DNA from: Psammoneis japonica | Lineage: Eukaryota | Length of the DNA: 52,223 nt | Direction of reading: 5' to 3' | NCBI GenBank assembly: GCA_008632985.1 | Contig: QPGO01000334.1 | Coordinates: forward strand, 1-52,223 | In this document: piece by piece, positions 8,011 to 39,859 of the stretch | Numbering within the stretch: position 1 is the first letter of the stretch | Layout of the letters: the number at the start of each line of letters is the position of its first letter | Notes under the pieces: generated by a model | What the model saw: the letters and a program-made list of their open reading frames with translations, nothing else | Databases searched by the model: none | Told to the model about the DNA's origin: nothing | Made by a program: the position numbers and the translations under genes

Positions 8011-8019
8011 TTGACACCA

Positions 8020-8486: not shown

Positions 8487-8520
<34 letters not shown>

Positions 8521-10670: not shown

Positions 10671-10927
10671 AATTTTTATCGTAACTCCACGTTCACACAG
10701 ACAACGAGACACAGCCGTCCAGCCAGAGAAGTGTCCAATCGCTGAAGACATCGGTCGGTCTTGGGGGGATGCATGGAACGCCGGGCGAGTGAGTGGAACT
10801 TCCGACACACACGAGAGGTTTCCGGGTGCATTCCGACAGGGCCACAAACGGTCGACCGACAGAGCGCGCGCGGTGACTTTTTACTTCTTTCAATTTTTTC
10901 GAAATCATGCATCACGACGCTCGCGGA

Positions 10928-14916: not shown

Positions 14917-15003
14917 GCGAACGTGGCCCAAAAGCGTCGTGGCATCGCATCACACATCACACATCCCTGCCAACAACTCCAACAACAAAACAATACATAC
15001 ATT

Positions 15004-15681
15004 ATGTCTTTGATTTTGAATTACCACGATGCCGTCTTGTACGACTCGGATTTGGCCTTGTTGGAATCTCGAACCGCTTGGCTCAATGACGCTTGCATTC
15101 ACTTTGAAATGACGCGATTGCAACAACAATCGGTTGTTTTATTCTTGGATCCCAGCGTCATTTCCTTTCTGATGCATCAGTGTGAGGACCAAGATGATAT
15201 GCAAGACTTTTGTAATGGCTACAATAATTTTAAAGGAATTCAGAAACTCATGGTACCCATTAATGACGGGCATGCGGCAGCTGGTCTCCAAGAAAATTGT
15301 GGAACTCATTGGAGTTTGCTAGTGATACAACTCCATGACTCCTCGAAGAAGAGTAGTAATTGTTTTCATTTTGATTCCATTCGAGGAAATAATTCGAATG
15401 CAGCTCGAGTCGTGGCAGCCAAGCTGCTTTTGGTGATTCTTGGAACTACAAAAGATGTAAACGTGGTAGAATACAAAACACCGCAACAAGTAAATGGTTA
15501 CGATTGTGGAATTCACATGCTGGCGGCGGCAGAGCTTCTGTCGTCTGTTGAGGATTCTAGTTTGTATGAAAGTACACTAGAGGATGCAATTAGTACAGGA
15601 GATTTTGCCACCCGGTACCGACAAAAAATGGCCTGGGATGTAAAACAGCTGGCTGCGGAATACAGGAAAACTAAAACATAG
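15004..15681 (+). CDS. SENP8: NEDD8-specific protease (SENP8/DEN1, Ulp1/C48 family)
   Basis: LNYHDAVLY.SDL.LL...WLND, catalytic HWSLL, FDS and QQ.NGYDCG. The start is MSLILNY at 15004. Confidence 0.85.
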   Translation: MSLILNYHDAVLYDSDLALLESRTAWLNDACIHFEMTRLQQQSVVLFLDPSVISFLMHQCEDQDDMQDFCNGYNNFKGIQKLMVPINDGHAAAGLQENCGTHWSLLVIQLHDSSKKSSNCFHFDSIRGNNSNAARVVAAKLLLVILGTTKDVNVVEYKTPQQVNGYDCGIHMLAAAELLSSVEDSSLYESTLEDAISTGDFATRYRQKMAWDVKQLAAEYRKTKT

Positions 15682-16118: not shown

Positions 16119-16724
16119 TTAGCAGCATCCACTGTTTGACTTGACTTGCTCCGTATTAAGCGTAAGTCCCGACTTGCCCGCTCCAGCTCCCGTCGGCGCG
16201 TTCTTCATCCTGGCCTTGATCTGGGTCGCCATGGTGAGAAAGGCTTCCTCCACATTGGTCGAGGTCTTTGCCGACGTCTCGAGAAAGTCAATTCCAAGAC
16301 TGTCCGCAAATTCCTTTCCCTGCTCGGTCGTCACGACACGCTTGGACGTCAGGTCGCTCTTGTTGCCCACAAGGAGCTTGTTCACGTCGGCACTGGCGTA
16401 CCGGTCAATCTCGTGCAGCCACTGCTTGACATTGTTGAAGGACTCCGTGTCGGTCACGTCGTACACGACAATGATCCCGTGCGCACCGCGGTAGTACGAG
16501 GATGTGATGGTACGGAATCGCTCTTGACCGGCCGTGTCCCAAATTTGGAGCTTGGCCGTCTTTCCATCAATCTCCACGGTTCGAATCTTGAAATCGACTC
16601 CAATGGTGGAAATGTACGACTCGGTGTACGTGTCGTCCGCAAAACGTAAAAGCAAACATGATTTGCCCACGCCGGAGTCTCCAATCAAGAGGAGCTTGAA
16701 CAGATAGTCGTATTCAGGGTTCAT
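16119..16724 (-). CDS. RAB1: Rab1/Ypt1 small GTPase, 201 aa
   Basis: [51 protein letters not shown] and a C-terminal CC prenylation motif. Confidence 0.97.
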
Positions 16725-17398
16725 TGTAATGTAGAGTTGTGGTGCTGTTGTGGTTGTTGCAAGGTCACGAGGGTCACTTGCTCTGCTGTTGTTATCGCTG
16801 CAACAACAAACGGATCGATAATTCGCTCTCTCTCTGTACTGGTGCCGCCGTACAAACGCGTGTAGGAATTTTTTGCTGGCGTTGTGTGCGAGAAATTTTG
16901 TTGCGGTGGCAATGATGATGAGCGCGTGCCGCGTCAACGGAATGAACATGCGAAGCCGTTCGATTTCGACTCGTTCGATTAAACTAAGTCGTGAAAATGT
17001 GCGAAAAATTTAGCTTGAGCGCACCGCACCAAAGATTTTGGGACAAAGGCTTCACGATTTGACATTCACCGCGGTTCTCCGAGTGTCACTTCACGACTGA
17101 AAGTATTTCCGGAAAGACAAAGAAGATAGTGATCCTTCTGTTCCAAGATTGTGCAAGACTGAATCTTATCCGTATAAGTCGTGCTGTTAGAGCAACTAAT
17201 CTCTACCGTCGCTCTAGTCGAAAGGCTAAACTTGAGCCTGTCTAGATTCAATGCTACGCTACTCAAAGCTATTCTCTTTCTTCATACAAACTAATAAACT
17301 TATACTTACAATGCTAGGAAATCTAATCTAGACAGATAGACCTCATCATGTACCTAGTTAAGAGACCCTTACCCCAAATGCACTTGTGTGTAAATATT

Positions 17399-18436
17399 TC
17401 AATGAACGTTTTGCATGCGAGATTTGATAAGCTTGAGCCTCGGCCCACGCTTGTTGCTTTCTTCTTGAACGGAGCAAGCTTCTTCATGAGAGCGCTTGGT
17501 ACCAGCAATACCATGCTCTTGTTGAACCACCATGTTGTTGTGCTGCGGTTGCTGATTCTTGGTGTTTTCTTGTGCGGACGGAAAAAAGTGGCCAAAGCCG
17601 GCACCCACCGAATCGTCCGAGACGATACGGGAACGATTGTGAAACAACTCGTTCTCCTCGGCACTATTGGTGGGAGTCACCAGAAGGGTGGTCATCTCTT
17701 GCGTCGGTGGTGGACCGCCATATAGCTGTACTCGTTGTTGTTGCTGTTGCCACTGTCGTTCCATCAATAGCATACTAGCCGCGTTGTTGTTGTTGTTGCT
17801 TCGTTCTTGTTGTTGTTGCTTCTGTTGCTGTTGTTGAGATCGCAATTCGGGAGCACCTTCTCGGAGCGCTTGAGACGTTTTCTCTCGTGCCTTGCGATCG
17901 GTAATTTGCACCCACACACCATTGGATGTCTTCTTGAGGAAACGACCGGGTGGTGAGAGTTGACGAATCAAGTCAACAATCTCACGAGCAACTCCCGCTT
18001 TGGCACGCTTGCTAGCACGGAGATAGGCTTCTTGCTTCATGCGGACCAATTGACGAAAAAAGACATTGCCACTGTGATGATTGGTCAAACCCCCACGACC
18101 ACACAAAACATCGTTATGAGAAATCCTAAAGTCCGCTTCTGTGACTTGCAGCGAAGGCTCTTGTTGAGCCGCACAGAGCTGAGCGAGCGCCTGAAGTGCC
18201 GACGCTTCTTCTTCTCTTTCTTCGGGTGCGTCTTGAAACTGATCTTGAGGGTCAACCACCATAGTATTCGTAGTAGTAGTAGTGCGTTGTTCTTGAGAAA
18301 CTGTAGGAAGGGACTCTTCCGAGACAACTCGAAGCGTTGAAAACTCTTGACTAAGTCTCGGAGAAGACGTTGGCGATTCGCTTAAATGAGATGTAGAGTC
18401 ATTTTGGGTTTTGTTTGCAAAAAGAAATTGGTTCAT
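17399..18436 (-). CDS. DUF6824-domain protein (diatom-expanded family) with poly-Q tracts
   Basis: DVLCGRGG..NHH.GN..FR, PPGRFLK and W......AREKTSQALRE. Confidence 0.85.
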   Translation of the reverse strand: MNQFLFANKTQNDSTSHLSESPTSSPRLSQEFSTLRVVSEESLPTVSQEQRTTTTTNTMVVDPQDQFQDAPEEREEEASALQALAQLCAAQQEPSLQVTEADFRISHNDVLCGRGGLTNHHSGNVFFRQLVRMKQEAYLRASKRAKAGVAREIVDLIRQLSPPGRFLKKTSNGVWVQITDRKAREKTSQALREGAPELRSQQQQQKQQQQERSNNNNNAASMLLMERQWQQQQQRVQLYGGPPPTQEMTTLLVTPTNSAEENELFHNRSRIVSDDSVGAGFGHFFPSAQENTKNQQPQHNNMVVQQEHGIAGTKRSHEEACSVQEESNKRGPRLKLIKSRMQNVH

Positions 18437-19109
18437 TCTGATGGAAAGGATAAATGTAAGCCGTATATGAGTTATAAGTTGGACAGTTCTGAGACGTGAG
18501 ATGTCTGCCTTGGCATGTAGTAAAGGAGTGGTGTAGTATTATGAGCTTTGTAATGAGAGTTCATCCGTGTGAATGCTGTTGTGTGAGTGACTATTCGTTG
18601 ATCGATCGTGCTCAACGCGGAAGAAACAAGATTCGGAACCACGTAGCTGTGCTACGTAGGAATTAGTATGTCCGAGCCGCGCGATCGGTACTCAATCGTG
18701 AACGGATGCGATTGGCGGCGAGGAGCGCGAGCAGATGGTCTGGTATGTTCTAACGTAGAATCCTACATAGATACTGACACACACGATCGAATCACGTGTG
18801 TGGCCGTCAGCTGGCTTTCAAACGAACCAATCAGATTGTTTGAAATATTTATGTCAAAAACGAATCATACATTTTCTTCACTTTTGAGTATATTTCAATG
18901 TAGCCGTTGTTGCGGGACTGACGAAAAGGCAAACACGATTCGGGAGCAAACGCGCAACGGACACGCGAAATTTGAAATTTGAGTCATGCCACCCAAGAAA
19001 CAAAAAGTGCAAAATGCACAAGTGGCTGATCCACTCTCCATCGTGGGTCCATTTTTCCAACGTGCATGATCTCCTGCCTTGAACTTCTTCCTAGACAACA
19101 ACCAACACC

Positions 19110-22196: not shown

Positions 22197-24095
22197 ATGA
22201 AGATGATGTCAAACGATGTTGAAATTGCCTCTGAAAATGTTGCAGAGAAGATGGCAAACAAAGCTGAGGAGCTGGTTCTTTTGCAGGACAATGCATTTGT
22301 GACCCGGTTCAACGTCAAACAAAAGGAATGCTCTCTGACACTGGAGGAGAAAAAGGCAAGAAAAGACAGGAACTGAGCCCGCAGAGAATTTGTTGGGAAA
22401 CACCACGAAGTTTTTGTGCAACATGTGCGTGCACTCCAATGTCATGTTCAAGAAGACATGGCATCATCGACCATCTTGCCACCAATGTGCAATGCTGGCA
22501 GTGCAACAACAAGTCAACGAAGCAAGTTCAATGAACAACGAAGCAAGAGATGCCATCCGTCTGCCATTGAAAAGTGGGGAGATTTCACGAATTTTTTAGA
22601 AGAGAAGTTTGATGCTGCCAGACCCCTTCCACTGCCGATGACTGCACCACTGTTTAAAACCGTTGTTGATTGGATGACAATGATGAACAAAATCACGGAG
22701 CAATCCTTCGTCAATCCATTTGTGTTTGTGCACTGTTTTGTCAAGCTGGTCTCATGTGTCTGCCCTTCCAAGTGGATTCTGAAGAACGGGGCCGCTTCCC
22801 AACAATTGGACGACCCGATGAAGCCTGCTGCATGAAACCAACAGGAAATGACCCTGTTTGAGCTCAGAAAACAGCAGTTTTTGAAGCAAAGGCATTGCAC
22901 AACATGTTGCTTCCGAATGACTTTGACATGTTGAAGCAGTGTCATGAGGAGGCGGTCAAGAAGCAAGCGACAGAAAGGAGAAAGGAGCAGTCCAAGAGCT
23001 GGCATCAAATCTGCCACCTGCTTTCCCAGGAATTGGCATGCATGATCAACAATGGTGTTCAACATGGAGCTCTTTTTTGTGCTTCAAAAGTGCACTTCAT
23101 CCACCTTGATGGACCAGGCAGAGAAGTTCACAGGGTGGAAATTGCTGATGCGCACATTGCTGGTCAGAAAGACTTTCTTCGTGCTTGGGTGTGTGTGATT
23201 TGTCTCGCCGACAAAAGTCCAGCACTGGCCAATGGAAATCATGGCCTTGAAATGTCTCCCTGCACTGGCATCAGATGGCTTAAGGAGACCCCAATTTGTG
23301 AAGCTGAAGCATCGGAATCAGTGATTGAATGTCAAGAGCAAACTGGACATCATCCCAATGACAATGGCTCTTCTGTTGGTGATGGAAACAGTGACCACGA
23401 ACTGTCTGGAGGAAGCCGAAGTGACAAGAGCAGCAGATCTAGCCCTGCATCCAAGAAACCAAGACACAAATCTCCTGAGCACCGCATGAAGAACGAAGGC
23501 AGTCAGTTGACTTTGATGTCATACACCGCCTCAGTTGGTTCAGTCGAGGTCTGCTGAGGATGAGGAAAGGAGCACAATGTCACTCCCACTCACCCCACCA
23601 GACTGCTCCTTCTTTGATTCGTTTTCTTTCGAAGACCAATTTGTGCATCCAGTCGATTTTTGAACTTTGAGGATCGGCCGGTTGTTGGGGGTCGGAAGGA
23701 ACGGAGACGTCTTTGAGAGCGACTGTGGTGAAGAGAAGGTTGCGGTAAAGCAGTTTGATCTGTCAAAGAATTTTGAAAGTTACGAGAATGAGGTCAAGGC
23801 GTACGTGCGGCTGAGAAAGGCATGGGGTGAGCTTGTCCCTACTCCAAAATTCATTGCGCAGTCACCATCTGGCATGGTCAGGTTCCTTGGTCTACAGAAG
23901 GGGAGGTGTCCCGAAGAGGAAGAGTTTGATGGGCACTTTGGCACCGTGATTGACAAGCCACGGAGTGACTATAACTTCCAACCTCTTGATTATTCTCATG
24001 GTCGCAACTGCATTGTTGTAGATGAAGACAATGGAACAAAGAAGTTGCTCGTTATCGATCTAGAATTTTGGAAAGACACTGTGAAGATTGAGTAG
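22197..24095 (+). pseudogene. Disrupted nuclease-like plus protein-kinase gene (Crinkler/CR-effector-like architecture)
   Basis: The C-terminal kinase has LG.GRNGDVF, VAVKQFD, YENEV.AY and VIDLE. Upstream fragments (VFEAK; WHQICH..Q..ACMINNGVQHGAL) resemble a PD-(D/E)xK REase-type domain. Multiple stops and frameshifts; the 5' part is TA-depleted. Confidence 0.55.
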
Positions 24096-24509
24096 ACTGA
24101 TTTGGGAGAGTGAAGCTGATCATCGGAGGTGTGGGCTGTGTGCAAAGCACATGGTACAGTAGCCATACCTTTAGTGCTCTAACTAGCCCAAACATGGTAG
24201 CTTAGCTAATCGATTAAAACAGAAATCTGGGCGTGTCGTGAAGGAGCAGCCCAAACCGCTCTCTCCTTGACTCCAGTTTAACGTTGCGGGTGAGCCTGCC
24301 ATCTGCTATCACCGCTCACCGCCCGTCGTGATCATGCGAGAGGGTTCTCTGCAGTTTGCTGAATACTATACTTCACCCTATTGTTTACCACGTGTGATAT
24401 AATCATGTTCGTATTGACGAGCTGCTTGGTGGTTTGAACACGTCTAATGCCTTGCATGTGCAACAAGGGACTCTTCCAATAGCTGAAAGAAACCGGGAAG
24501 AGTGCTGCG

Positions 24510-25619
24510 CTAAGACTTTGCTACAGCGGTACTTGCCACAATCTGCTCAGCCGTTTTGACGTATTTGAGGAATATTTCCTTTGTCTGCTCATAAAGCTCT
24601 TCTCGGTATCGTCTGCTATCGATTCTGACCACGGTTCTTTTGTCGTTGGAACTCCATTCGAAACACCGGTCGAAATCAATATGCCAAAGTTTTCCCGTGC
24701 TGTCAACCAATACTTGAAAGTCCCGCACAAGGCAACTTATATCCTGGATAAGTTCCAGGGTTTTGTTTATCTCGTGCCTAAAGTTACGAAGGAAGGATTC
24801 GCTGTCGCTCGACGCGGCCACAATTTCATCCAAATGCCCCTTTGCGTGTCTGTATTTGTTGGAGGTACAACCGAGGAGCAGCGACGGTTGAGGAGCCATT
24901 TTTACTCTATACACGGCAGCCATTCCTTTGGCATAGTAGCCTTTCTTGATCATTTTCTGTCGGGACTCTCTCATTAAAACTCTGTTCATCTCAGATGCAT
25001 CATTCTGGCTTAGATGTATAGACTGAACTGGACCAAACAGAGTGGATATCGAGTACTCCTTTTCAACCATTCTCGCAAGATCCCAAGCTTTTTCTCCGCT
25101 CGCAACAAAAAAGTTTAGTTGTTCTTGTGTGACCAAATAACCAAAGCGGGGACTTTCGCCCTTTTCGCGGAAAAAACATTTCTCCACCCCACAGTTTGCC
25201 GGAACAGTTAGATTCAAGTTCTCCAATGCAAATTTCTTTGGAGAAGAATGATCTGAGTCAGACACGAGTTTGACGTCCTTTTCATTTCTTGTGCCGTTTC
25301 TTTGTCCTCTTTGTTCGTATTTGTCAATATCGCCTTTGTACATGTCTACTTGCTCTTGACCTTCTCGATTGTCCTGCTTGTTGCTTCTATGTTTTTCGCG
25401 TGTGTCCGACAAAGATTGCCTTTTTGATGTGGGCGGAAGATCCTTCGTGGCAGAATCTTTCCTGATGGACTTGGATAGCGCTGCATATAGAGACGGTGAG
25501 TGTAATGACAGAGGAGTTGAATTGATGTTGCTTAGAGACACGAAGGAAACTCGGAGAATCAGTTGAACGGTACTGTATCCAACGATGAACACGACGTAGA
25601 CTAGTCGACGACTCAGCAT
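24510..25619 (-). CDS. Uncharacterised N-terminally anchored protein, copy A (intact, 369 aa)
   Basis: Intact ORF with an N-terminal hydrophobic segment. C-terminal DFQVLVD..G..WHIDFDR weakly suggests a kinase-like fold. Normal TA/CG content. Confidence 0.75.
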   Translation of the reverse strand: MLSRRLVYVVFIVGYSTVQLILRVSFVSLSNINSTPLSLHSPSLYAALSKSIRKDSATKDLPPTSKRQSLSDTREKHRSNKQDNREGQEQVDMYKGDIDKYEQRGQRNGTRNEKDVKLVSDSDHSSPKKFALENLNLTVPANCGVEKCFFREKGESPRFGYLVTQEQLNFFVASGEKAWDLARMVEKEYSISTLFGPVQSIHLSQNDASEMNRVLMRESRQKMIKKGYYAKGMAAVYRVKMAPQPSLLLGCTSNKYRHAKGHLDEIVAASSDSESFLRNFRHEINKTLELIQDISCLVRDFQVLVDSTGKLWHIDFDRCFEWSSNDKRTVVRIDSRRYREELYEQTKEIFLKYVKTAEQIVASTAVAKS

Positions 25620-27194
25620 TTTGGAGAGGTTTCAATTACAGTCTAGTATACCTCAGCAACAGCGATGATAAATCCATCATCCAGTCTTTTTGGCAATCCT
25701 TTCATGGTCGTTGCCGCGGAAAAGCAAAAGGGAAAAGCAGAAAAAAGGTGGGGATTGATTCGACCGTTGGGCGCGCACAAAATTTTGATGACGACGAGCG
25801 TTGAAAGAGCGAGCACGCAAGAGCAAAAAATGATGGCACGCACGAATTTTGTGCGCCATGAGCACACCAAATGCAATGGGGCAGCAAGTTCCACTTCTTC
25901 CTTGCCATTCAACCACGTCCATGCCACTGGCAATGGGGAAGCCATCCAAGCCTTCTTCATCTGGTGGGGTCATGGGGAAGCCATCCCAGCCTTCATCTGG
26001 TGGGGTCACCCAAACACTCCTCTGTGTTTGCCTGGACAAACTCGCGCCCATCTCCTTGTTTTGACCCGTGTCCCTTCTTGTCAGTGATGTCATGCACAAC
26101 ACATCATGGACAAATCATCAACACATCTTCTTCTCTCATTTTGCTTGCTGCAGGAGACACTGTGTTTTCCACAGGCAAATGCAGAGAGTGCAGCCAGGTG
26201 GGCATGCTTGCCTCTTGAAAGAAAGAGCTGCAAAATGCTGGCGCTCTTGTTGTTTGCAGTGGAGACAACTCTGGCCTGCATCATTCTTGGTGTGATTCAC
26301 ATTGAGATTGTGTTCTCTGGCTGGCAATGAGCCATTGTTGCTGAAGAAGTCATTGTGAAAATTGTTGCTGGTCAAAGAGACACACCACCGCAGATGTCTT
26401 GAAACACAAGACTTTGGACCCAGCTTCTGTTTGCTCTCATTCTGAATTTCTTTGACATGTGCCAGCTTCATTGGCTTGCTGCTGTCAAGATGGAAGAAAC
26501 CTCTTTCTGTCAAGTTGAGCCTCTCGATGCCTCTCATTTCTTTGACCACTCTCCTTTCAACACCAGTGCAGTTGGGGCAATGTCCCCCTTTTGTTGGGAG
26601 CTCCTTCCAACACACCCCACAAGATGATGGAGAGCACATTTCTTTGCAAGTCATGTCAGCATTGGGTCATCATGCATCAGAGCTGTGTGCTGTGTGCAAA
26701 ACACATGGTGCAGCAGCTGCACCTTAAAGGTCCTGACCAGCCCAACCATGGTGGCTTTTAGGCAGTCATTTTTAACAGAAATCGTGGCATGTCATGCTGG
26801 AGCAACCGCTCTCTTCTTGACTCCAGGTTGACATCGAGGGAAAAGCTGCCATGTGCTGTCCCCGCTCACCACCCATTGCATCATGTGAGAGGGGTCTCAG
26901 CAGTTTGCCGCACACACTGCTTTGCCCCTTTTGATTTAAACCAGTCGACTCAAATGTGGCATGCACAAAGACATGAAAGCACAACATGAAGGCCAACGGG
27001 CTGTGAGGAAGCCCAAAAGCCAAGGGCTTCAATCTGTGTGTGACAGATGAAAAAGGACATCTGTTCATTTTGATGAGCCACTTTGTGGGTTGAGCATGTG
27101 TGTTGGCTGCCTCAATGGCATTTCTGCAGGAGAAGATTTGCGTGTGAAATGAGAGACTCTTCCATTGGCTGAAAGAACCGGGAAGAATGCGGCG

Positions 27195-28304
27195 CTGAGC
27201 TTTCACCACAGTGTTGTTTGCCACAATCTGTCCAGCCATTTTGACATGATTGAGAAATGTTTCCGTTGCCTGCTTGCAATGCTCTTCTCGGTGTTGCCGC
27301 TTGTCAATTCTGACAACGTTTCTTTTGTCATTGGAACTCCATTCGAAACACCGGTCGAAATCAACATGCCAAAGTTTTCCCATGCTGTCAACCAATGCTT
27401 GAAAGTCCCGCACAACACAACTTACATCCTGGACAAGTTCCAAGGTTTTGTTTGTCTTGTGCCTAAAGTTACGAAGAAAGGATTCACTGTCGCTCGACGC
27501 GGCCACAATTTCATGCAAATGCCCCTTTGCGTGTTTGCATTTGTTGGAGGTACAATCGAGGAGCAGTGACGGTTGAGGAGCCATTTTTGCTCTGTGCACG
27601 GCAGCCATTCCTTTGGCGCAGCAGCCTTTCTTGATCATTTTCTGTTGGGACTCTCTCATCAAAACTCTGTTCATCTCAGATGCATCACTCTCGCTTGGAT
27701 TTGTAGACTGAACTGGACCAAATAGAGTGGACATCGAGTGCTCCTTTTCAACCATTCTCGCAAGATCCCAAGCTTTTTCTCCACTCGCAACAAAAAAGTT
27801 TAGTTGTTCTTGTGTGACCAAATGACCAAAGCGGGGACTTCCGCCCTTTTCGTGGAAAAAACACTTCTCCACCCCACAGCTTGCCGGAACTGTCAGATTC
27901 AAGTTCTCCAATGCAAATTTCTTTGGAGAAGAATTGTCCGAGTCGGACATGAGTTTGACGTCCTTTTCATTTCTTGTGCCTTCATTTTGTCTTTTTTGTT
28001 CATGTTTTTCAATGTCGCCTCTGTGCATGTCTATTTGCTCTTGACCTCCTTGATTGTCCTGCGTGTTGCTTCCATGTTTTTCGCGTGTGTCTGACAAAGA
28101 TTGCCTTTTTGATGCGGGCGGAAGATCTTTCGTGGCAGGATCTTCCCTGATGGACTTGGACAGTGTTGCATGTAGAGACGGTGAGTGCAATGACAGAGGA
28201 GTTGAGTTGATGTTGCTCAGAGACACAAAGGAAACTTGGAGAATCAGTTGAATGGTGCTGCATCCAACGATGAACACGACATGGACCAGTCGACGACTCA
28301 GCAT
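27195..28304 (-). pseudogene. Copy B of the triplicated gene, hypermutated (all Tyr lost; stop read-through extends the ORF to 26772)
   Basis: Colinear with copies A and C. All 14 Tyr of copy A are His or Cys here, and TAG has become CAG at the old stop. Confidence 0.85.
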
Positions 28305-29884
28305 TTTGGAGAGGTTTCAATTACAGTCTAGCACACCTCAGCACAACAACAACGACAAATCCATCATCCAGTCTTTTTGGCAATCCTTTCATGGCCGTTG
28401 CCACGGAAAAGCAAAAGGGAAAAAAGGTGGGGATTTGACCATTGGGCACGCACAAAATTTAAAATTTTGATGAGCTTGGAGACGAGCGTTGAATGAGCAC
28501 GCAAGCAAGCAAAAAATGATGACACGCACGAATTGTGCGCTGTGAGCACACCAAATGCAATGGGGCAGCAAGTTCCACTTCCTTGCCATTCAACCATGTC
28601 CATGCCACTGGCAATGGGGAAGCCATCCAAGCCTTCTTCATCTGGCGGGGTCGTGGGGAAGCCATCCAAGCCTTCATCTGGTGAGGTCATGCAAACACTC
28701 CTCTGTGCTTGCCTGAACAAACTCGCGTTCATCTCCTTGTTTTGAGCCATGCCCCTTCTTGTCAGTGATGTTGTGCACAACACATCATGGACAAATCTTC
28801 AACACATCTTCTTCTCCCATTTTGCTTGCTGCAGGAGACAGGCCACTGTGTTTTCCACAGGCAAATGCAGAGTGCAGCCAGGTGTGGGCATGCTTGCCTC
28901 TTGAAAAGAAGAGCTTCAAAATGCTGGTGCTCTTGTTGTTTGCAGTGGAGACAACTCTGGCCTGCATCATTCTTGGTGTGACTCACATTGAGAACATGTT
29001 CTCTTGCTCTCAATGAGCCATTGTTGCTGAAGAAGCTGTTGTGAAAATTGTTGCTGGTCAAAGACACACCACCGTGGATGTCTTAAAACACGAGACTTTG
29101 GACCCATCTTCTGTTTGCTCTCATTCTGAATTTCTTTGACACATGCCAGCTTCATTGGCTTGCTGCTGTCAAGATGGAAGAAACCTCTCTCTGTCAAGTT
29201 GAGCCTCTCAATTTCTCTCATTTTTTTGACCACTCTCCTTTCAACAGCAGCACAGTTGGGGCAATGTCTCCCTTTTGTTGGGAGCTCCTTCCAACACACA
29301 CACACCACACAAGATGATGGAGAGCACATTTTTTTGCAAGTTGTGTCAGCATTGGGTCATCATGCATCAGAGCTGTGAGCTGTGTGCAAAACACATGGCA
29401 CAGCAGCCACACCTTAAATGCCTTGACTGGCACAACCATGGTGACTTTTGGGCAGTTGTTTTTAACAGAAATCGTGGCATGTCGTGCTGGAGCAACCACT
29501 CTCTTTTTAACTCCAGGTTGATGTTGAGGGTGAGCCTGCCACATGCTGTCCCTGCTCTCCACCCATTGCATCATGCAAGAGGGTTCTCTGCAGTTTGCCA
29601 CACACACTGCTTCACCCCTTTTGTTTTGAACCAGTCGACTCAAAAGTGGAACACAGAAAGACATGAAAGCACATTATGAAGGTTAACCAGCTGTGAGGAA
29701 GCCCAAAAGCCAAGGGCTTCAAACTGTGTGTGACAAAGGACAAAGGACATCTGTTCATTTTGATGAGCTGCTTTGTGGGTTGAGCGCGTGTAATGGCTGC
29801 CTCAATGGCATTTCTATAGGAGAAGATTTGCATGTGCAATGAGAGACTCTTCCATTGGCTGAAAGAACCAGGAAGAATACGGCA

Positions 29885-30994
29885 CTAAGCTTTCACCACA
29901 GTGTTGTTTGCCACAATCTGTTCAGCCATTTTGACATAATTCAGAAATGTTTCCTTTGCCTGCTCGTAACGCTCTTCTCGGTAACGCCGCTTGTCGATTC
30001 GGACAACGTTTCTTTCGTCGTTGGAACTCCATTCGAAACACCGGTCAAAATCAATATGCCAAAGTTTTCCCGTGCTGTCAACCAATACTTGAAAGTCCCG
30101 CACAAGGCAACTTATATCCTGGATAAGTTCCAGGGTTTTGTTTATCTCATGCCTAAAGTTACGAAGAAAGGATTCGCTGTTGCTTGATGCAGCGACAATT
30201 TCATGCAAATGCCCCTTTGCGTGTTCGTATTTGTTGGGGGTACAACCGAGGAGCAGCGACGGTTGAGGAGCCATTTTTACTCTAAACACGGCAGCCATTC
30301 CTTTGGCATAGTAGCCGTCCTTGATCATTTCCTGTCGGGACTCTCTCATTAGAACTTTGTTCATCTCGGATGCATCATTCTGGCTTAGATGTATAGACTG
30401 AACTGGACCAAACAAAGTGGATAACGAGTACTCCTTTTCAACCATTCTCGCAAGATCCCAAGCTTTTTCTCCGCTCGCGACAAAAAAGTTGAGTTGTTCT
30501 TGTGTGACCAAGTAGCCAAAGCGGGGATTTTCTCCCTTTTCGCGGAAAAAACATTTCTCCACCCCACAGCTTGCCGGAACAGTTAGATTCAAGTTCTTCA
30601 AAGAAAAGCTGGTTGGAGAAGAATGATCTGAGTCAGACACGAGTTTGAAGTCCTTTTCTTTTTGTGTGCCGTTTCTTTGTCCTCTTTGTTCGTATTTGTC
30701 AATATCGCCTTTGTACATGTCTACTTGCTCTTGATCTTCTCGATTGTCTCGCTTGTTGCTTCTATGGTTTTCGCCGGTGACTGACAAAGATTGTTTCTTT
30801 GATGAGGGTGCAAGGTCCTTCGTGGCAGGGTCCTCTCTGATGGACTTGGGTAGCGTCAAAGATATAGACGGTGAGTGCAATGACAGAGGAGTTGAATTGA
30901 TGTTGCTTAGAGACACGAAGGGAACTCGGAGAAGCAGTTGAACGGTGCCGTATCCAACGATGACAATGACGTAGACTAGCCGACGACTCAGCAT
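29885..30994 (-). CDS. Uncharacterised N-terminally anchored protein, copy C (intact)
   Basis: Start MLSRRLVY at ~30994. Colinear with copy A and retains Tyr codons and the TAG stop. Confidence 0.75.
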   Translation of the reverse strand: MLSRRLVYVIVIVGYGTVQLLLRVPFVSLSNINSTPLSLHSPSISLTLPKSIREDPATKDLAPSSKKQSLSVTGENHRSNKRDNREDQEQVDMYKGDIDKYEQRGQRNGTQKEKDFKLVSDSDHSSPTSFSLKNLNLTVPASCGVEKCFFREKGENPRFGYLVTQEQLNFFVASGEKAWDLARMVEKEYSLSTLFGPVQSIHLSQNDASEMNKVLMRESRQEMIKDGYYAKGMAAVFRVKMAPQPSLLLGCTPNKYEHAKGHLHEIVAASSNSESFLRNFRHEINKTLELIQDISCLVRDFQVLVDSTGKLWHIDFDRCFEWSSNDERNVVRIDKRRYREERYEQAKETFLNYVKMAEQIVANNTVVKA

Positions 30995-31075
30995 TTTATT
31001 TCCTGTCACAGTTGAGCAACAACGATGATAAATCCATCCTCCAGTCTCTTGGTAATCTTCAAGGTCGTTGTAGCG

Positions 31076-31102
31076 GATGATGATGATGATGATGATGATG
31101 AT
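31076..31102 (+). repeat. (GAT)n microsatellite, ~9 units
   Basis: Direct reading. Confidence 0.9.
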
Positions 31103-33524
31103 ACAGTGTTCCACCGCGAAGATTGTCAAATAAATCGTCAAGACATACATGCAGTCATTGTGACTCGCCGTTTCAATGACTTCAGAAACGTCACTGAGGT
31201 GACCTGCTGTAGAAGAAGAGTCGTTGAGAGTCTCCTCGCGCCTCACAATCTCAATTTAGTTGCTGTAACACTGGCACCTAGAATTGCCTCAAGCTTGCCA
31301 AGGCATGCAATGCAGTCGTCAACAATGAGGGCACGGACGAATGATTCCCAGAGCATGGGGCCACATTTGTGGCTGCCATGACAATGTGCAAGATGGAAAA
31401 ATGTGAGTGGAAACCTTGTGGTGTCATGCCGCCATGCTTTTCTCAAAGCAACTGCCTTGCTGGCATGACAGGCAAAAAAGCCTGCAATTGCATTGCCACT
31501 GTTCCAGCACTGGTCATCACAGACACTGCACAATGGTGGCCTGCCTGCACTCACCGCACTCTGTCAGCAGCCACCATCTTTGTCGTTTGCTTGTCGCTCA
31601 GTTGTCTTGGGCACTCATCACACCATGCACCCAAGCAAAGTGATGGCACAGGCCATGCTCTGGTTGCTGCCATGTGACCAACAAGCTGTGCCAATTTGGA
31701 GAGTGAGTCACATGCTCTGTTGAAATGATCGATGCCAACACCTTCTCTGAGCAAAATGAACAATTTGGCAACGTGATTCACCCAGCACCCAGGTGCCAAA
31801 AGTGAAAAGCATTCTGTGCAGAATCTGACATTGACCCAGCACATGAAGTTGAGGATCCATTGCAAGTGACCATGAGTGTCAAGATGAAGCTGAAGCTGAG
31901 TGCAATGCTGGCGCACCTTGCAAGGAATGGCAACCTGCGAGCCAAGATCAGGGCCTTTCTCAAGCTTTTGTTTGCTTCTTTCACTGGCAGTGCAGTTGAA
32001 GCAAAGTGCTCTTTTTTCATTTGGAAAGTTGTTCCCAGCACAGCATGAGCAACATGACTGGAGAGAGCACCTTTGCAAGTCTTCATTCTCAACATCTTCT
32101 TGGCTCCATGAGTTTGACACCCCACCCTGACAAATGAGGAATGAATCGCTGCCTGCTTCAGCTTGTTTGCCATCGGTGCTTTGATGGCTTGTGTGTTTTG
32201 GGAGGCAACACCCTGACCTTGCTTTTGCTGAAGCCTGGGGCATCATGCCAGTCTCAACATCAATCTGTGTCAGACAAAAAAATGTTGGAATGTTGAGCCA
32301 GGAATGCTCCAAAATGGTGTCTGCATCTTTTGCCAGAAACTCCAAGCTGAACAAAGAAGATGTGCTGGATTTGTTTGTTTTTTGAGGAGCCTGGGGAAGC
32401 TGAAGCTGCATTTTCTCTTCTTCAATGTTTGCCCTCTGCAACTGTTTTTATCATCTCCATCCATGTTTGCTCTCAATGTCAGGAAGTGGTGCTGCTGTCA
32501 CAGATGGGACAAGATCTTCATCATCGCAGCTGCCATCTTCATGCCCTTGTTTGCACTGCTTGTTCTGTGGGCTGCAAGTTGCTGTGGTGCTTTCTGGGTG
32601 CAGCACTCAAGCTTTTGACTCTCCACACTGCAACTCTTCAGTGCCAAGATCTGCAGTGACATTTTTGACACTTTGCTGTTCAATGTTTTTGGTGCAGCTG
32701 CCACAGCAGACCACCCAACTCCATTGATTTGCACTTTGACAGCTTGGCTGATGAAGCAGCTTCTGGAGCTGCTGCAGATTTGTTGGTTGTGTGCAGCAAC
32801 ACTTTGTCATTTTCCATCAGTGCCTTGTGTGCCTGGTGGCAGAGCAGCTCAAGTTTCAGCATGACATTTTCATTTGAGTGCACACAAGCCAAGAGGGGCA
32901 CAGCACACAGAAACAGCACTTTTCTCATCAATGTCAGCTTGCCTTCAATGTGTCACAGTCCAGTTGGTTGTTTTGTTTCAGTTGCCCCACCACACATTTA
33001 AAAAAAGCCATGGCTGTCTCACAAAAACTGGCTGCCACCCTCTCTCTGTGACACCTTGTGCATTGCAACAGTCACATGATGATGATGGTGCAAGCTTGTT
33101 GCATTGACCAATCACACTCAAGTGCCTGGTGCATCTTTCTTTGCCTGCATCAAGTCTTGGAAGCTGCTTTCTTCTTGTGACTGTTGGCTTTGAGAGAAGT
33201 GTCAAAGCCATGCCCAGCTGAGTTTGAGCATGCACAGGTGGTGCTTGCAACAACGCCAAGTTGTTGTCCATTTTGGTGTCAGCTTCATGTCATGCATGTT
33301 GCCACAACAGTTGGCACTGAGGCAGAAATGCATTGGTCACTGTTGCACCTGAAAAACTGCAAATGGATCAAAAGCTGGGATTTGAGTGTCAAGCACAAGC
33401 TGACTTGCAGGCTGGCATTGCCTGCAAATGTCATGTGAGCTTTACAATGAAGTTTGCTGGCCGCCAAGCAACTGCTCTCTGTCTTTGTGTGAAAAAGGGG
33501 GGTGGGGTGACACTTGATGACTTG

Positions 33525-33834
33525 GCGCACTGTGCTTGGAGAACAAGCACAAATGAAAGCAGAGTGGACAACAAAAAGTGGACATTGTGAGACAAATTTT
33601 GCTCTGCAATTTTTGGTTTCTCTGAATGAATTCTCTCAATGGCCCAAAGCATTTGTGCTGCTTCCACAGACTGAAAGGCTTTTCAGAGAATGTGATTGTG
33701 ACAGCAGATTGTCTGGGTGTGACTGACACTGCCACCTTGTGTGTCAACATCATCAAGGGATCTTGTTTGCAATTCTCAACATCCAACAATTGTGGACATG
33801 TGCACAACTTTCTTGCTCAACAACACATGTTGCA
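33525..33834 (-). repeat. 3' LTR of the Gypsy element
   Basis: Matches ~38200-38591 (ttctcaatggcccaaag, ccttgtgtgtcaacat, aactttcttgct). Begins TGCAACA on the minus strand just after the integrase end. The left boundary is approximate. Confidence 0.75.
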
Positions 33835-36800
33835 CTTGAATTCCTTGCTGCACATTAGAGTCATTCATTGAATGGTGTCATTTGACAGATGTTGACAGTG
33901 TCAATGATCTCTCACCATGTTTGATCTGCACTTGCTGTGCTGTCAGTGTGTGCCATTGTCATTTTGTGGTGGGGCCCAGCATGGGGCTGCTCTGATTTTG
34001 AGAGTCTTTCTCAAGCAATGTCTTTTCTTCTGCTCTGTGCTGCACATGTGAGAGAAGCACATTGAGCATTTTCTCAAGCATTGTTTTTATTTTTAGATTT
34101 TCTTTTTTCTTTTCTAAACAAATTTCCTGTCAGCAAGAACATGTTGGATGTCAAATGTGACATGCCTGTTGAAGACCAACTGTCCTGGTGCAGCTTGCAC
34201 AGCAGTGTGACATGTTGAGTGCACTCCAAAGGCCGCTGCTGACAGGATTCCTGTGAAAGGATTCTCTTTGTCTGGAGGTTTATTTTGTAGATCAAATGTG
34301 TGCAGCATGTTGCCCAGTGCTCAATGCTTGTGCTGAACAATGGTGTCAGCTTGTGGATTTTGGGCACCAGCTGTGGGCCTGCACTCAATGCCACAGTCCT
34401 CTTTAACCACAGTTCTGAGTTGGTGTTCAGTGAACTCACTTCCACAATCACAAGCAATTGAAGATGGTCAAGGGCACTCACTCAACACCACGTTCTTTCC
34501 AGCAGTCCAGCAACAGTCATGGATTCCTCATTTGGAATTTCTGCCAGTGCTTCAAACAATCCTGTTGCTGGATCAACCATTGTGAAACATTTTGAGACCA
34601 GTGGTTTCTTTCTGCCCTTTCAATGCATTTTGCATGGTTCAATGACATTCACACATCTTCCCCATTGCACTGCTTCCACACACTCAGGAGGCCAATGTTT
34701 GTGTTTCTTCTGTTTCTTTTTTTAAATTTCTGGCATTTTTCACATTTTGACACGCATTTTTCTCATGTCTTTGCGCAAGGCAGACCACCACAAGTGTTGT
34801 GAGATTGTCTCTTTAGCTCCACTCATGGTGCCAAGGTGCACAAGGCATGCATGGTGCACCAACCCATCACTCTGCCTTTTTTGACATCTTTGGCATGATC
34901 TTTGTGTGACATGTTGCACCCAACAATTTGGAGAGAATGTCCTTGCCCCACTTTTGTTCAGCATCAAGAACTTTGCACGTAAAAATTGAAGGACATTGTT
35001 GCAGGATTTGGGTGCAACATTCTCAGCCAATTCTTCAGCGGCTGCTGAGGTTTTCTGTTTTCTTCACAGTGAGTCAGCTGATTGCATCTGCAATGACACC
35101 AGCCTTGCCCTTTTGAGGTAAATTGTTTTTGAGCTGCATTCTTCTGTTGTCAGATGCCAACACATGACTCTGTTCACAGCAAAATTCCAGTGAGTGAGAT
35201 TTTTAGGACCCACAAATGTTTTCATCTGTTGGCCAAACAGTGTGTTGCAGAACTCTTTTGGATTTTCTGCAAAGGACAGAAGTTCTTCTTCCATTGTGGT
35301 GTGGCATGTCTGCACTCCATTGAGCTTGCAGCTGCAGAAGGCAGTGGGTCTGTCATCTTGTGTTGTGACCACTCCCAATTGAGAATCACTGATGGTGGTG
35401 TGCATCTCAAATGGTTTGTTGCATTTGGGTGTGACAACAACACATTTTTGACATGAAATGCTTCATGTTTTTGAAAGCCTTTTGTTCCATGCTTGTCTGT
35501 TGCCACTTGACCTTGCTTGAGGTGATTTGGCCAGACAAGTGAGTGCATGAGATTGTCAAGGCCAAATGCTCCAATTCCTTGTGAGTGGTGGGAGCTGCAA
35601 TCACTTGAATTGCCTCCACTTTCTCAGGGATTGGTCTGAAGCCATTTCAGGTGATGTGAAGGCCTGGATGGTCCACTTCAGGCTTGGATTAAATAGACTT
35701 TTTTTGGCATTAACTTTTAAACCAGCTTGTTTGAGCCGTGTGAATGTCATTTTAAACTTGTTCAGGTTGTGTTTGAAGGCACCTTTTATCAGGCACATCA
35801 TGTCATCAAAATGAGTTCTGAAAACTCCAAACCTGCCATGAGCTGGCTTGTGTGTTCTTGAAAACATGTGAGGCTCCACAAACATCCACCATGGTGAGTC
35901 TGCAGCACTCACACTTGCCCCATGGCACACCACAATTGCACACAAGCAACATGCTGTGGTGTTAATTTGACATGGTGGTGTTCCATGTTCAAATCAAGTG
36001 AGGTCACATGCATGGACCCTTCTGGTTTTTGCAGCACATCTTCAATGTTGGGCAAAGGAAATGGAGTGTGTCTTGACCTTTTGTTGAGCTTGCAGAAGCC
36101 AGGCAGGAACCAAACTTGACCATTTTTCTTGGGTTGAACAAAAGTTGGAGCTGCCCATTCAGAATGGTTCATCTTTCTCAAGACTTTCAATTTGCATTGT
36201 TGGTCCACTTCCTTTCAAGCAATTGCCTCCAAGGCTTGTGGCACAGGAAATGGTTTCACGTGACACAGAGTTGCAACCAACTTCAATGCAAAATCTGCTG
36301 GTCTTCCTGTTCATTTGTGCCTGAGGCCTGACACACCATCAAAGAGGGGTTGAAACCTTTTTGAGCAAGAAGTTCAGTTGTCTCTGTTCTTCTGGGGCTG
36401 GATGAGTTGCTGCCATGGTGGTCACATTGTTGAGGTCAGCAGCATGACAGTCAGAGTCAAGGATCTTGTTGATCCTGTTGTCAAGGCCATTCACAGCATG
36501 AGATTCCTCAATGCAATTGGCAATCAGCTTGAAAACATCAGGCATCAAAGAATGTGCCAACATCTTTCATTGGTGCAGTTGCATCTTCCCATTTGATTTT
36601 GTCATTTGCAAAGTCTGACATGACTCCAAGACTGCTCATCAAGTTGTGTCCCAAGACCATGTCACATTGACATGAAGAAGAAGGGGTGCTGCACCACATT
36701 CTTAATCAACTTGTGTTTGTCAAATTCAGGTGATGAAAACTGGATTTTGCATTGGCTGTCAGTCACAAAGAGTTCACCCTTGGTTTCTCAAGTCTTGGTT

Positions 36801-38199
36801 GCAGATTCCTCAGTTCTCAATTTCCACATGAATTTGCACAAAATTGTGGTTTTCTGTCAAGAAGAATGTGCAGAGGCTTGTTTTTTGTTTTCCACAAAGA
36901 GGTGCTCATGTGAGGAATGATTGCTGGACTGGTGTGAGTTGTTTGGCCTTTTCCTGGGCTTGTTGGTGTCCAGTGATGTGCAAGACTCCTCAACAGGTGC
37001 CAGTCATTCCTCAGAATTGCTGCGAGTCATTTTCTCAAACTGAAACTTTCCTCTCTGAGGGCATCAGTGTCAGAGTCACAACTCTTGCTCTTGCACTCTT
37101 GTCCTTTGTCAAGAAACTTGCCTCAAGTGTCATCTTGACCACCTGGGCAATCAGAGCATCAAAATCTTCTTTTTGAAAGGCATTGTCAGCATTGCAACAA
37201 GGCCAGCATGTGCGATTGGCATTTTGGACATTGCTGTTTTGGGTTCCATTCAAAATTTTTTGGCATTCTTTTGCCAGTTTTTAATGACCCAGCATTGCTT
37301 GGTCCATGTCATGAGCATTTTTTTGCAACAATTGCACCGCTTGTTGGACTTGGGCCATTTGGCACCAGATTGGCAACCATTTTTGGGACCACAGCACCAC
37401 GGGATCTGTCCTGGGCTTTAGAGCCAGGCTCAGTGGTGGGCTCAGATTCGACATGGATCTGGTCAAATGATGTGTCCTTGGCAACCTCCAAATGCTCCAC
37501 AAAATCAACCAACCTGTCAAAGGTGTGGTCTGAGACTTCCAAACATTGTGGGTTGACTGATGCAAGCATCAAGAAGGTGCAAGGATGATGTTGCAGAGCT
37601 CATGTTAAGCAAGATTTTGCTTTGACTCATGGGGAGGACTGCACTTGAAGTTTTTGTTGACCTCCTGCATTCAAGCAGCAATTTCTTGAATTTTTCATGG
37701 TGTCTGGTTTCTGGAGATCAAGATCATGCTGTGGACGCCTTTTCTGATTTTGAGGAGTGTTCTTGGGGAAGACATGGTTTGAAAGATGCTGAAGACATTT
37801 TTCAAAGGCTCCTTTGTCTTTTCAGTCTTCAACGCTTGTTGCCTTTCTCAAAAACTTGCAGAGTGTCTCCATGCAACAACAACATGTGCACAAGCTGGAA
37901 CTTGTCAGCTTGCTTCTGGATGATCTGAAAGTTTTTAAAATTTTAATGTGCTTGGGAACTCCCTGCTTGTTGTGGTGATTGACATCTGTCATGTGGGTGC
38001 AGCTTTTCTTGCATCTTAAGGATGAAAATGCTGCTCCACATCTTGAGGTGCCGGCTTGGTTCAAGCAACTTTGGCGTGGAAATCAAATCCAGTGGCACAA
38101 GCACAATCTTCTCCTGCTTGATCAAGGACTTTGGGTGGATTGGCCACATGAGACAAAAGCTTCATTTTCATGTTTTTGCTTTTTATGGCATTTGTGCAC

Positions 38200-38591
38200 A
38201 ATGCACAGTGCTTGAAGAACAAGTGCAAACAGAAGTGGAGCGGATCGCACAAAAAGTGGAAATTGTGAGATTAAAATTTGCTCTGTGATTTTAGATTTCT
38301 CTGAACAAGTTCTCAATGGCCCAAAGTGTTTGCACTGCTTCTGCGCACTGAAAGTCTTTTAGAAAATGTTGTCATGACAACAGATTGTCCAGATGCAATT
38401 GACGTTGATGCCTTGTGTGTCAACATTGTCAAGGGATTGCATCATTTGCAATTTTTGACATCTCACAAACTCTGTGTGATCAATCTGACCTTCATGTGCA
38501 TGTCCACAATTGTGGTGCAATTGACACATGTGACATTGCACAATTGTCAGCATGTGCAAAACTTTCTTGCTTGACAACACATTGTGTTGCA
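38200..38591 (-). repeat. 5' LTR of the Gypsy element
   Basis: Diverged copy of 33525-33834 with an internal indel. Begins TGCAACA on the minus strand. Confidence 0.75.
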
Positions 38592-39859
38592 TTGGCAGGC
38601 TGTTTGTTTTGCATGCTTTGGTGCAAAAATGGCACCCAAATGACAAAACCAAATCACCAGCCTTTCATTGCTCCGATGCGACCATTGGGTTTTTGTCACA
38701 TTTGGAGAACCAAGAGGCAAGCAGGCCACTTTGGTTTGCTTCCATGCAAATGTGGCAGACCCACATGTGTGCACCAAACTGAGTCACTTTCAGTGCTGAA
38801 ATGAAGACAAAAAGACAGATCCTCATGAGTGGAAGGGTTGTTGGCACTTGTTCCCAGCTTTGAGAAGCCTGCCATTTGGTCGTGTCACACAAAAACTCAG
38901 CACAGCAATGACTTCCTGGGAAAAAATCTGATGAAATTTTCTGGCATTGTTGGCTGCACAAAGCAACAAGGTGTCTGAACAGCTGAGTGGAGCATGCTCC
39001 TGTGGCATGTGGGAACTCTGGTGAGTTCACTTGTTTGGCATGAAGGATGTCTTTCAAGTGCAAATGGTCGCAACATCCTCTTGCCATGTGCTTGAGAAGA
39101 AGTGCTTTTTGTGGCTATGGAGCAGATTGCTGTGCCACATTTGAGTGGCTCAAAGTCTCACAGATGCCCACTCATTGCACTCAAAAGGTTGGCCATGATC
39201 ATGTGCAAGAAGCAAGTGAACATGCCACAATCATTGGCCTGAGGAGCTTGGCTTTTGCTGCCAGCTTTAGAAAAGATTGCACTGTGCTCCTCCCAAAAAG
39301 AAACTTTGGCCAAGTTTTTCTCAAGATCTTTGCAGCCACACCCCTGTGTCAACTTGGGAGTGGTGAGAGGCAAAGCAGACAAAAAACCCACTCTTTCAAC
39401 TGAGTCATGTGAACCACTGACAAGAAGCAGAAATGCCTGTTGCAAGTCAAATCATCTGCAGCAAATGTTCGAACAAAATGAGCTTTGTTTCTTCAAACCA
39501 ACTGACCCTGCCCCATTCCCATCACAAAGGCTTGCAACACATTGCTTGCTCACAAGAACAATGATGTCACACAATCCACACACCAGTGCTGGTGTGTTGT
39601 TAAACCAGTTGGTGTTGGAGTGACAAAGTGAGGACATTGAGATGTCAATGATGAGCTGTGCATGGCATGCCAAAAGCCCACCTTGGCTCCACAGTGTGGT
39701 CTGCCACAAATGTTGGAAGAAAGGTGATGGATCAGCAAATCCAGCTTTGAAACATGCATGAGTTTGCCACCACCCCCTGCACAGTGCTCTGGGTGTTGGT
39801 CATTGAGCTGCTTTGCAGCACACTTTGCATTGACTCTGTGGTGCATCATGCAGAGTCAT

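Follow-up and report, generated by a model that had tools for sequence, protein, structure and literature searches.

The 52,223-nt window analysed here, positions 1 to 52,223 of contig QPGO01000334.1 from Psammoneis japonica (assembly GCA_008632985.1), contains an array of three tandem units which each hold one copy of the same gene on the minus strand, namely copy A (24510-25619), copy B (27195-28304 for the part homologous to the other two) and copy C (29885-30994). Copies A and C are intact genes of 369 aa. The middle copy B has lost all of its tyrosine codons as well as its stop codon, and this is very probably the result of a hypermutation of TpA to TpG or CpA that is directed to a chromosomal domain and that, together with CpG decay, has acted on a silenced, redundant copy of recombinant origin.

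Copy A encodes 14 tyrosines and copy C 12, while copy B encodes none, and the whole 510-aa open reading frame (ORF) of B (26772-28304, minus strand) is free of tyrosine. A previous sequence-only reading of this DNA had stated that every tyrosine of A is replaced by histidine or cysteine in B, and the codon comparison bears this out, with nine changes of TAY to CAY (His) and five of TAY to TGY (Cys) among the 14 codons. Coordinates and codons likewise agree with its account of the lost stop: copy A ends in TCT TAG and copy C in GCT TAG, and at this place B reads GCT CAG (27195-27197) and continues for another 141 codons to a TAA at 26772, which gives the ORF of 510 aa. This read-through extension (26772-27194, minus strand) runs into a 3' flank resembling that of C.

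When a three-way coding alignment of A, B and C (1110 columns, without a single indel) was sorted by dinucleotide context, the changes private to B proved to be concentrated at TA and CG. Copy B carries 82 private coding changes, of which 72 are transitions, compared to 34 (26 transitions) in A and 68 (40 transitions) in C. At the 37 coding TA dinucleotides common to A and C, B displays TG in 15 cases, CA in 15 and TA in 7, while none has become CG; at the 41 coding CG dinucleotides common to A and C, it displays TG in 8 cases, CA in 9, AG in 1 and CG in 23. Expressed per base, transitions in B affect 32/83 positions at TA sites versus 12/475 at other A/T (Fisher p = 5e-20), and 18/97 positions at CG sites versus 10/351 at other C/G (p = 5e-7). 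After correction for saturation, the rate in B is 32.5-fold increased at TA compared to other A/T and approximately 10-fold at CG compared to other C/G. The process is strand-symmetric and TpA-specific, and it is faster than the accompanying decay of CpG, as 81% of the TA but 41% of the CG have been lost. The sparing of the outer copies, which had also been claimed, is complete: TA-site transitions private to A were found at 0 of 16 bases and those private to C at 0 of 54 bases. In a wider alignment of 1577 columns, 36 of the 57 A:T>G:C transitions private to B are located at TA.

The further claim that the remaining changes of B fit the same TA/CG rule holds for the larger part only. Copy B has 49 private amino-acid changes, of which 30 follow the rule (21 via TA and 9 via CG), while 19 arose via neither of them. 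Given the loss of 30 of the 37 shared TA, the chance of losing all 14 tyrosines is 0.053, and a comparison of TA in tyrosine codons with other TA gives p = 0.07; the loss of all 14 tyrosines only mildly exceeds what is expected from the overall loss of TA.

This loss of TA is by no means confined to the coding part of B. Erased segments, such as 6627-10793 and 31361-42162, sum up to 26,935 of the 52,223 nt of the window (52%) and display observed/expected ratios of 0.05 for TA, 0.24 for CG, 1.71 for TG and 1.85 for CA, compared to 0.55, 0.91, 1.24 and 1.23, respectively, in the rest of the window. Since the G+C content is nearly equal in both (0.475 in erased DNA and 0.462 in the rest), these domains are hidden in a GC profile. 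Their edges are sharp: six TA are found in 25600-25699, followed by none in 25700-26699, where about 60 would be expected, and a second sharp edge lies near 29800. The window is thus a mosaic in which gene islands with ordinary TA and CG frequencies are set between sharply bounded erased domains. In the array, the erased domain (25700-29800) holds the spacer S1 (25700-26680; 0 TA, 22 CG), copy B, the spacer S2 (28385-29370; 2 TA, 15 CG), which is a copy of S1, and the 3' flank of C. Copy A lies inside a TA-normal island at approximately 23700-25699 and copy C in another one at approximately 29800-31299. Copy B, flanked by a fully erased spacer on either side, represents an intermediate stage: it retains 9 TA (A has 46, C has 38) and 41 CG (A has 56, C has 54).

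Erasure of TA also has consequences for reading frames. Both strands of 25700-26700 together contain 47 TGA stops and neither TAA nor TAG, and this near-absence of TAA and TAG in erased DNA accounts for the read-through of B over 141 codons as well as for many long ORFs in all frames. Examples from erased DNA, in which such ORFs occur in all six frames, are frames of 537 codons (9270-10880) and 298 codons (31554-32447), neither of which has a Pfam match. By our own count, stop-free stretches of at least 130 codons number 70, and 39 of them have a TA observed/expected ratio below 0.15. The 510-aa ORF of B is a by-product of the removal of TAA and TAG.

The layout of the array and the parentage of B are relevant for all that follows. 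The tandem units are spaced 2685 and 2690 nt from start to start. Repeat unit A (24121-26674, minus strand), as delimited by the repeat families D1-D11 and blastn, consists of the 3' flank, gene A and the upstream spacer. Within the window, blastn pairs 24452-28400 with 27138-31070 (87% identity) and also 24452-25720 with 29828-31077 (88% identity); A and C share 84-88% identity with B and lie about 1 kb away from it. At its right end, the homology stops at a (GAT)9 microsatellite (31076-31102). The 369 aa of copy C are counted from the ATG common to A and B, and its ORF is lengthened to 31246 by an upstream GTG. Further, older copies of the family were not found in the window by tblastn with copy A.

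The origin of B was examined by counting the odd copy at sites which are neither TA nor CG in any of the three copies. Between 26655 and approximately 27446, a stretch comprising the 3' flank and the gene's 3' end, 62 sites single out A, 8 single out C and 21 single out B. For the gene body and its 5' end, approximately 27646 to 28430, the corresponding numbers are 5 for A, 63 for C and 19 for B. Hence, B appears to be a recombinant with a C-like left (3') part and an A-like right part (body and 5' part), and a sliding count over the non-TA/CG sites places the switch approximately in the zone 27350-27650. Such a copy most likely arose via unequal crossing-over between older copies, with C and A misaligned, and one unequal crossover of this kind would yield the chimeric B and the third unit together. 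At sites with TA in A but not in B or C, mostly in the 3' flank, B and C hold the identical product in 17 of 19 cases. These conversions would therefore be shared by descent and inherited from the C-type parent, so that the 3' flank of B had largely lost its TA before B arose.

Spacers S1 and S2 differ at 78 positions in 960 aligned nt, and the nine places where TG stands opposite CA mark TA or CG whose conversion took place separately in the two spacers once the duplication had occurred. At ordinary sites, the divergence accumulated since then is about 3-5%, with a similar magnitude in each of the three comparisons; with a synonymous divergence (dS) of 0.22 for the split of A and C, the array event is much younger than this split. 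No gap event is present in the 1110 coding nt of B, as compared to nine in the 960 nt of the S1/S2 pair. The sequence-only reading had concluded from the lack of frameshifts that conversion was rapid relative to the accumulation of indels. Our gap counts are consistent with that conclusion and weakly favour either a conversion that was brief and fast or constraint that was lost late. Other substitutions accumulated in B amount to about 3%.

With copies A and C near-identical to B, about 1 kb away and untouched, the process follows the chromosomal domain or its state and not sequence homology. This observation also bears on the strongest competitor, a homology-triggered process resembling repeat-induced point mutation (RIP), whereby duplicated DNA would be sensed and mutated and B would have been hit as a repeat. 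Such a trigger would suit the fact that B is the youngest repeat copy, which at birth would have been near-identical to A in one part and to C in the remaining part, and that the erased spacers S1 and S2 are themselves duplicated. RIP of Neurospora and other ascomycetes also resembles the present case in that redundant DNA is inactivated by transitions crowded at a single dinucleotide, which leaves a skewed dinucleotide footprint. Its direction, however, is the opposite one: fungal RIP changes C to T at CpA and thereby makes TpA, while the process described here destroys TpA (46 and 38 in A and C versus 9 in B). RIP furthermore hits every copy of a repeat, while the homology partners A and C are spared here with 0 TA-site transitions, and it creates stop codons, while TAA and TAG are removed here and ORFs become longer. 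In addition, the array region (about 4 kb) is the one part of the 26.9 kb of erased DNA for which the window holds a repeat partner. A RIP-like explanation is improbable on these grounds.

Next, the selective constraint on the three copies was compared. For A versus C, the ratio of non-synonymous to synonymous substitution rates (dN/dS) amounts to 0.31, and to 0.28 within the conserved domain; both genes are under purifying selection. Twenty of the shared TA offer one synonymous and one non-synonymous product, and here B took the synonymous product at 7, the non-synonymous one at 7 and left 6 unconverted, while 76% synonymous products would be expected under the constraint seen between A and C (p = 0.03 for the 7:7 outcome). 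Where both products alter the protein, TA was converted in B at 15 of 16 sites. On account of this even product choice and the conversion of nearly all protein-changing TA, B behaved as neutral DNA during the conversion, purifying selection having been lost. Copy B has also lost conserved residues through Y161H (Y161 being nearly invariant), Y189H, L203P and G250D.

These data allow ordinary decay to be weighed, in which B would be a pseudogene without any special mutator, while selection or gene conversion would have preserved the likeness of A and C. Purifying selection on A and C, the 18 transversions of B in the 1577 columns and its 19 amino-acid changes at other sites are in line with such decay, and B does share with duplicated pseudogenes that it is a chimeric middle copy in register which has lost conserved residues and its stop and has gathered neutral substitutions. 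It differs from them in having neither a frameshift nor a premature stop, since the spectrum removes stops and the gene therefore looks like a long intact ORF. Against ordinary decay stand the 32-fold excess at TA (p = 5e-20) and a loss of TA that is equal at synonymous and non-synonymous positions and in the non-coding spacers; GC-biased conversion would not, in addition, change CG to TG or CA. To our knowledge, no background mutation spectrum removes TA at such a rate, and decay of this kind as the whole explanation is very unlikely. Likewise, decay of methylated CpG cannot explain the loss of TA. It would fit the companion signal, as 17 of the 41 shared CG are TG or CA in B, at about tenfold the rate of other C/G, and the erased domains are CpG-poor (0.24).

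Support for the sequence as assembled comes from one DNA sequencing run, here X1, which holds 85% of the words sampled from the window. Contigs of X1 cover 30 of 30 bins, and the 9 listed pieces of 69 carry 0-1 differing letters, copy B included. X1 supports the sequence, not the order of the units. An artefact could consist in a modified base being misread, so that TA appears as TG or CA, or in divergent alleles having been mis-assembled as an array, and it would gain from the fact that the sole supporting run probably derives from the same sample and that its listed contigs leave the unit order unbridged. Apart from the agreement of the X1 contigs with the window, such an artefact is contradicted by the outcome of the conversions, which is random per site (15 TG to 15 CA) and yet the same for B as for C at 17 of the 19 older sites, as is the property of real mutations. 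Moreover, the units differ by 12-16%, which is too large for an error of collapse or expansion. We consider an artefact more doubtful still than ordinary decay.

Where X1 and the window differ, the differences are of a particular kind: of 14 in total, 5 oppose TA to CA or TG and 7 oppose CG to TG or CA. One of them concerns 27724, a TA left in B, which is TA in the window and TG in X1. Ten differences fall within 150 nt (23945-24093) at the edge of the A island and mostly oppose TA to CA or CG to TG. The TA and CG differences between X1 and the window hint that the process is still going on or that haplotypes differ in the extent of erasure.

Which of the copies is derived had been concluded from the agreement of A and C. 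This agreement is insufficient for the purpose, as three sequences form an unrooted tree, but the conclusion itself is retained on other grounds. As outgroups, 70 domains from the 60 best representative homologues were used. The residue of A and C is carried by 64/68 outgroup domains at Y161, 45/70 at Y189, 55/70 at V239, 54/66 at G250 and 61/70 at L297, while at position 229 tyrosine is found in 32/70 and phenylalanine in 38/70; residues 1-125 and those after 335, outside the conserved domain, have too few aligned outgroups to be polarised. Because the outgroups hold the A/C residue at conserved sites and the apparent recombinant parentage gives each part of B a parent, B is, judged from these comparisons, the derived copy. 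The reverse polarity, with CA/TG in B ancestral and TA (by a RIP-type change of C to T at CpA) and CG gained in A and C, could draw on the unrooted tree and on a change of CAG to TAG creating the stop of A and C; it is hardly credible, since the outgroup domains hold Tyr, Val, Gly and Leu where A and C do, since the frames of A and C are open although the reverse change would scatter stops, and since a gain of CG from CA/TG opposes every known bias. Equally far-fetched is the origin of B from an RNA that was hyperedited from A to I by an ADAR-type enzyme, reverse-transcribed and re-inserted: ADAR prefers the edited A to follow a U, products of both kinds (TG and CA) would be expected from double-stranded RNA, and the Bigelowiella natans preprint introduced below draws this analogy, but B stands in register in an array with likewise erased, non-transcribed spacers, it also shows CG changed to TG or CA, the erased domain runs into unrelated DNA, and neither a poly-A tail nor target-site duplications nor missing flanks were seen around B.

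Additional information on the TpA process can be obtained from the TA dinucleotides that survived it. In erased DNA, 91 TA remain, and a chi-square test shows their contexts to differ strongly from those of the 1004 TA located in normal DNA (p = 2e-24). TTAA makes up 32% of the surviving TA (29/91) compared to 5% of normal TA, and CTAA/TTAG 24% (22/91) compared to 9%. In contrast, ATAT and GTAC are absent (0% each, versus 6.6% and 8.3% of normal TA) and ATAC/GTAT account for 1% versus 13%, so that ATAT, GTAC and ATAC/GTAT together contribute 1 of the 91. Survival, calculated for each context as the share of TA in TA+TG+CA, is 5.9% for TTAA, 3.3% for CTAA, 2.1% for CTAG, 1.2-1.4% for GTAA/ATAA, 0.7-0.8% for CTAC/ATAG and 0-0.1% for RTAY. 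This order fits a targeting per strand of TAY > TAG > TAA. The polarised data of B alone follow the same trend (TAY 22/45 versus TAR 10/33), which is not significant (p = 0.11). If the TAY preference is real, the coding strand is hit preferentially at tyrosine codons.

A comparable mutator is described for Bigelowiella natans by Mettrop et al. (bioRxiv 10.64898/2026.01.13.699255). According to this preprint, 231 of 302 new mutations in a mutation accumulation experiment fell into two viral inserts, and 230 of these 231 were A>G or T>C changes, without exception at TpA; in the region derived from a nucleocytoplasmic large DNA virus (NCLDV), 210 of 211 mutations were of the TpA class. The rate in the inserts is given as approximately 1000-fold the background, near 1e-7 to 1e-6 per site per generation, and an ADAT2-like adenine deaminase is proposed as the agent (bioRxiv 10.64898/2026.01.13.699255). 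As far as the preprint describes it, that process and the present one have in common that TpA is hit and becomes TpG or CpA depending on the strand, that the changes are confined to regions while the remaining genome shows normal behaviour, and that the footprint consists of TA depletion with CA/TG enrichment. They differ in their targets, which are giant-virus and virophage inserts in a rhizarian in the one case and a paralogue of a host gene in the other, and in the degree of depletion, with a TA observed/expected ratio of 0.45 in the NCLDV region of B. natans as opposed to 0.05 in the erased DNA here. Almost no other class of change is reported in the preprint, while B has further classes, and the rate was measured there, while it is comparative and time-averaged here. 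The words diatom, CpG, trinucleotide and context do not occur in the main text of the preprint. Apart from this preprint, the top-ranked matches listed in a literature search for TpA hypermutation in diatoms contained nothing relevant.

Taken up again in light of this precedent, domain-directed TpA hypermutation of a silenced, redundant recombinant can be laid out as a course of events. Unequal crossing-over between older copies would have yielded B, which would then have lost selective constraint and come to lie in the erased domain formed by both spacers. Having become redundant, B would have entered a silent, CpG-methylated chromatin state. There, a strand-symmetric process changing TpA to TpG or CpA would have removed 30 of the 37 coding TA of B, including all tyrosine codons and the TAG stop, and in parallel approximately 41% of its CpG would have decayed as methylated CpG does. 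The chemistry could be a deamination of adenine at 5'-TA-3' on either strand, giving inosine which is read as G, as proposed for B. natans in the preprint; a mutagenic modification of T in TpA would fit equally well.

Several points weigh against this explanation. In the 1577 columns, B additionally carries 24 changes of CG to TG or CA, 37 other transitions and 18 transversions, and 19 of its 49 private amino-acid changes lie at neither TA nor CG. At other sites, the rate of change in B was about three times that of its parent copies; ordinary relaxed decay therefore plays a part, and the CG and other non-TA changes may be later or separate processes. The excess at TA, time-averaged, is about 32-fold and thus far below the 1000-fold reported for B. 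natans, and decay of CpG accompanies the loss of TA here while CpG goes unmentioned in the main text of that preprint. That the domain consists of silent, CpG-methylated chromatin, and that B is silent at all, is something we infer. Concerning the origin of B, duplication followed by gene conversion gives the same picture as unequal crossing-over, and the two cannot be separated. Finally, X1 was probably made from the assembled sample, and its contigs are short, with no listed piece that bridges the unit order.

The gene itself belongs to a family without a match in Pfam, as judged from a scan of copies A, B and C, and a search of a protein atlas returned weak kinase-like leads only, at values of at most 0.90. 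In sequence searches, the family is widespread: 435 representative proteins were found at E ≤ 0.001 and 137 at E ≤ 1e-10, with the closest being 48-51% identical, and relatives often carry two or three domains in tandem. It is a eukaryotic gene. Of the metagenome loci encoding relatives, none was confirmed with the protein. A structure model built on 77 sequences is predicted with a local confidence (predicted local distance difference test, pLDDT) of about 95 over residues 130-369, preceded by an N-terminal helix (2-32) and a disordered linker. The best match of this model by Foldseek in the Protein Data Bank (PDB) is the minimal kinase HopBF1 (6pwd; E = 6.6e-5, TM score of 0.52 on the target), followed by 6pwg, and the further hits among those listed are almost all of the kinase fold (PI3K/PI4K, actin-fragmin kinase, Fam20, Rio1 and WaaP). 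HopBF1 was also the sole hit of the family profile against the PDB, with E = 0.03-0.04. Across the 77 sequences, C143, K147, C148 and D300 are invariant and D315 is nearly so; B retains C143, K147, C148 and D300. We read the protein as a predicted membrane-anchored atypical kinase. The likeness to the HopBF1-type minimal kinases (6pwd, 6pwg) lies in the kinase fold, by structure comparison of the predicted model; sequence identity amounts to 11-14%, and the family of the array differs by an N-terminal membrane anchor and two invariant cysteines (C143 and C148).

Some further features of the window were recorded. Directly upstream of gene A, 25700-25899 (200 nt) contains 0 TA and 15 CG, and the TA-normal island ends about 80 nt upstream of the ATG, so that the presumed promoter of this intact gene sits in TA-free, CpG-rich DNA. 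At the left edge of the same island, an ORF of 142 aa (23667-24095, plus strand) is convergent with gene A; it has no Pfam family and is unrelated to the triplicated family by profile comparison, and the DNA directly upstream of it (before 23600) is erased. Another stretch of about 1.3 kb (13000-14300) has 8 TA where about 78 would be expected, with normal CG and an AT skew of 0.2. It lies within a frame of 778 codons (12471-14804) with a match to DUF1280, next to an ORF for an Ulp1 protease (14851-15678), and may be either a young patch in which TA was lost before CG or an effect of amino-acid composition. The gene islands with ordinary TA encode a Ras-family GTPase, a DUF6824 protein, a kinase of the EcKL/APH type as well as DUF4419 and DUF3110 proteins; the coordinates of these genes, listed together, are 16122-17009, 17402-18538 and 46569-47822 (all minus strand), 2-637 (plus strand) and 2877-3917 (minus strand). 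A literature search on DUF6824 found nothing.

For a mutator that changes A:T to G:C at one dinucleotide within bounded domains, the 2026 preprint on B. natans, an unrelated alga, is the single precedent found. The array described here displays the same signature on an ordinary host gene and provides internal controls in the form of spared sister copies about 1 kb away, known parents and a neutrality test based on product choice. New in the present case are the recombinant nature of B, conversions that ignore coding constraint and a survival of TA biased to TTAA and CTAA. Gene finders would call long false ORFs in erased DNA, in which a dead gene can look intact. Tentatively, and with considerable reserve, one may go further and suppose a chromatin-guided DNA-editing system which prefers 5'-TAY-3' on each strand and which, besides viruses and transposons, permanently retires silent redundant host genes, B having been retired in the array, with the loss of all its tyrosine codons and of its stop, within about 3% of neutral divergence. 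If true, this process would be present in two distant algal lineages, where it would shape the turnover of gene families and fill silent DNA with long false ORFs.

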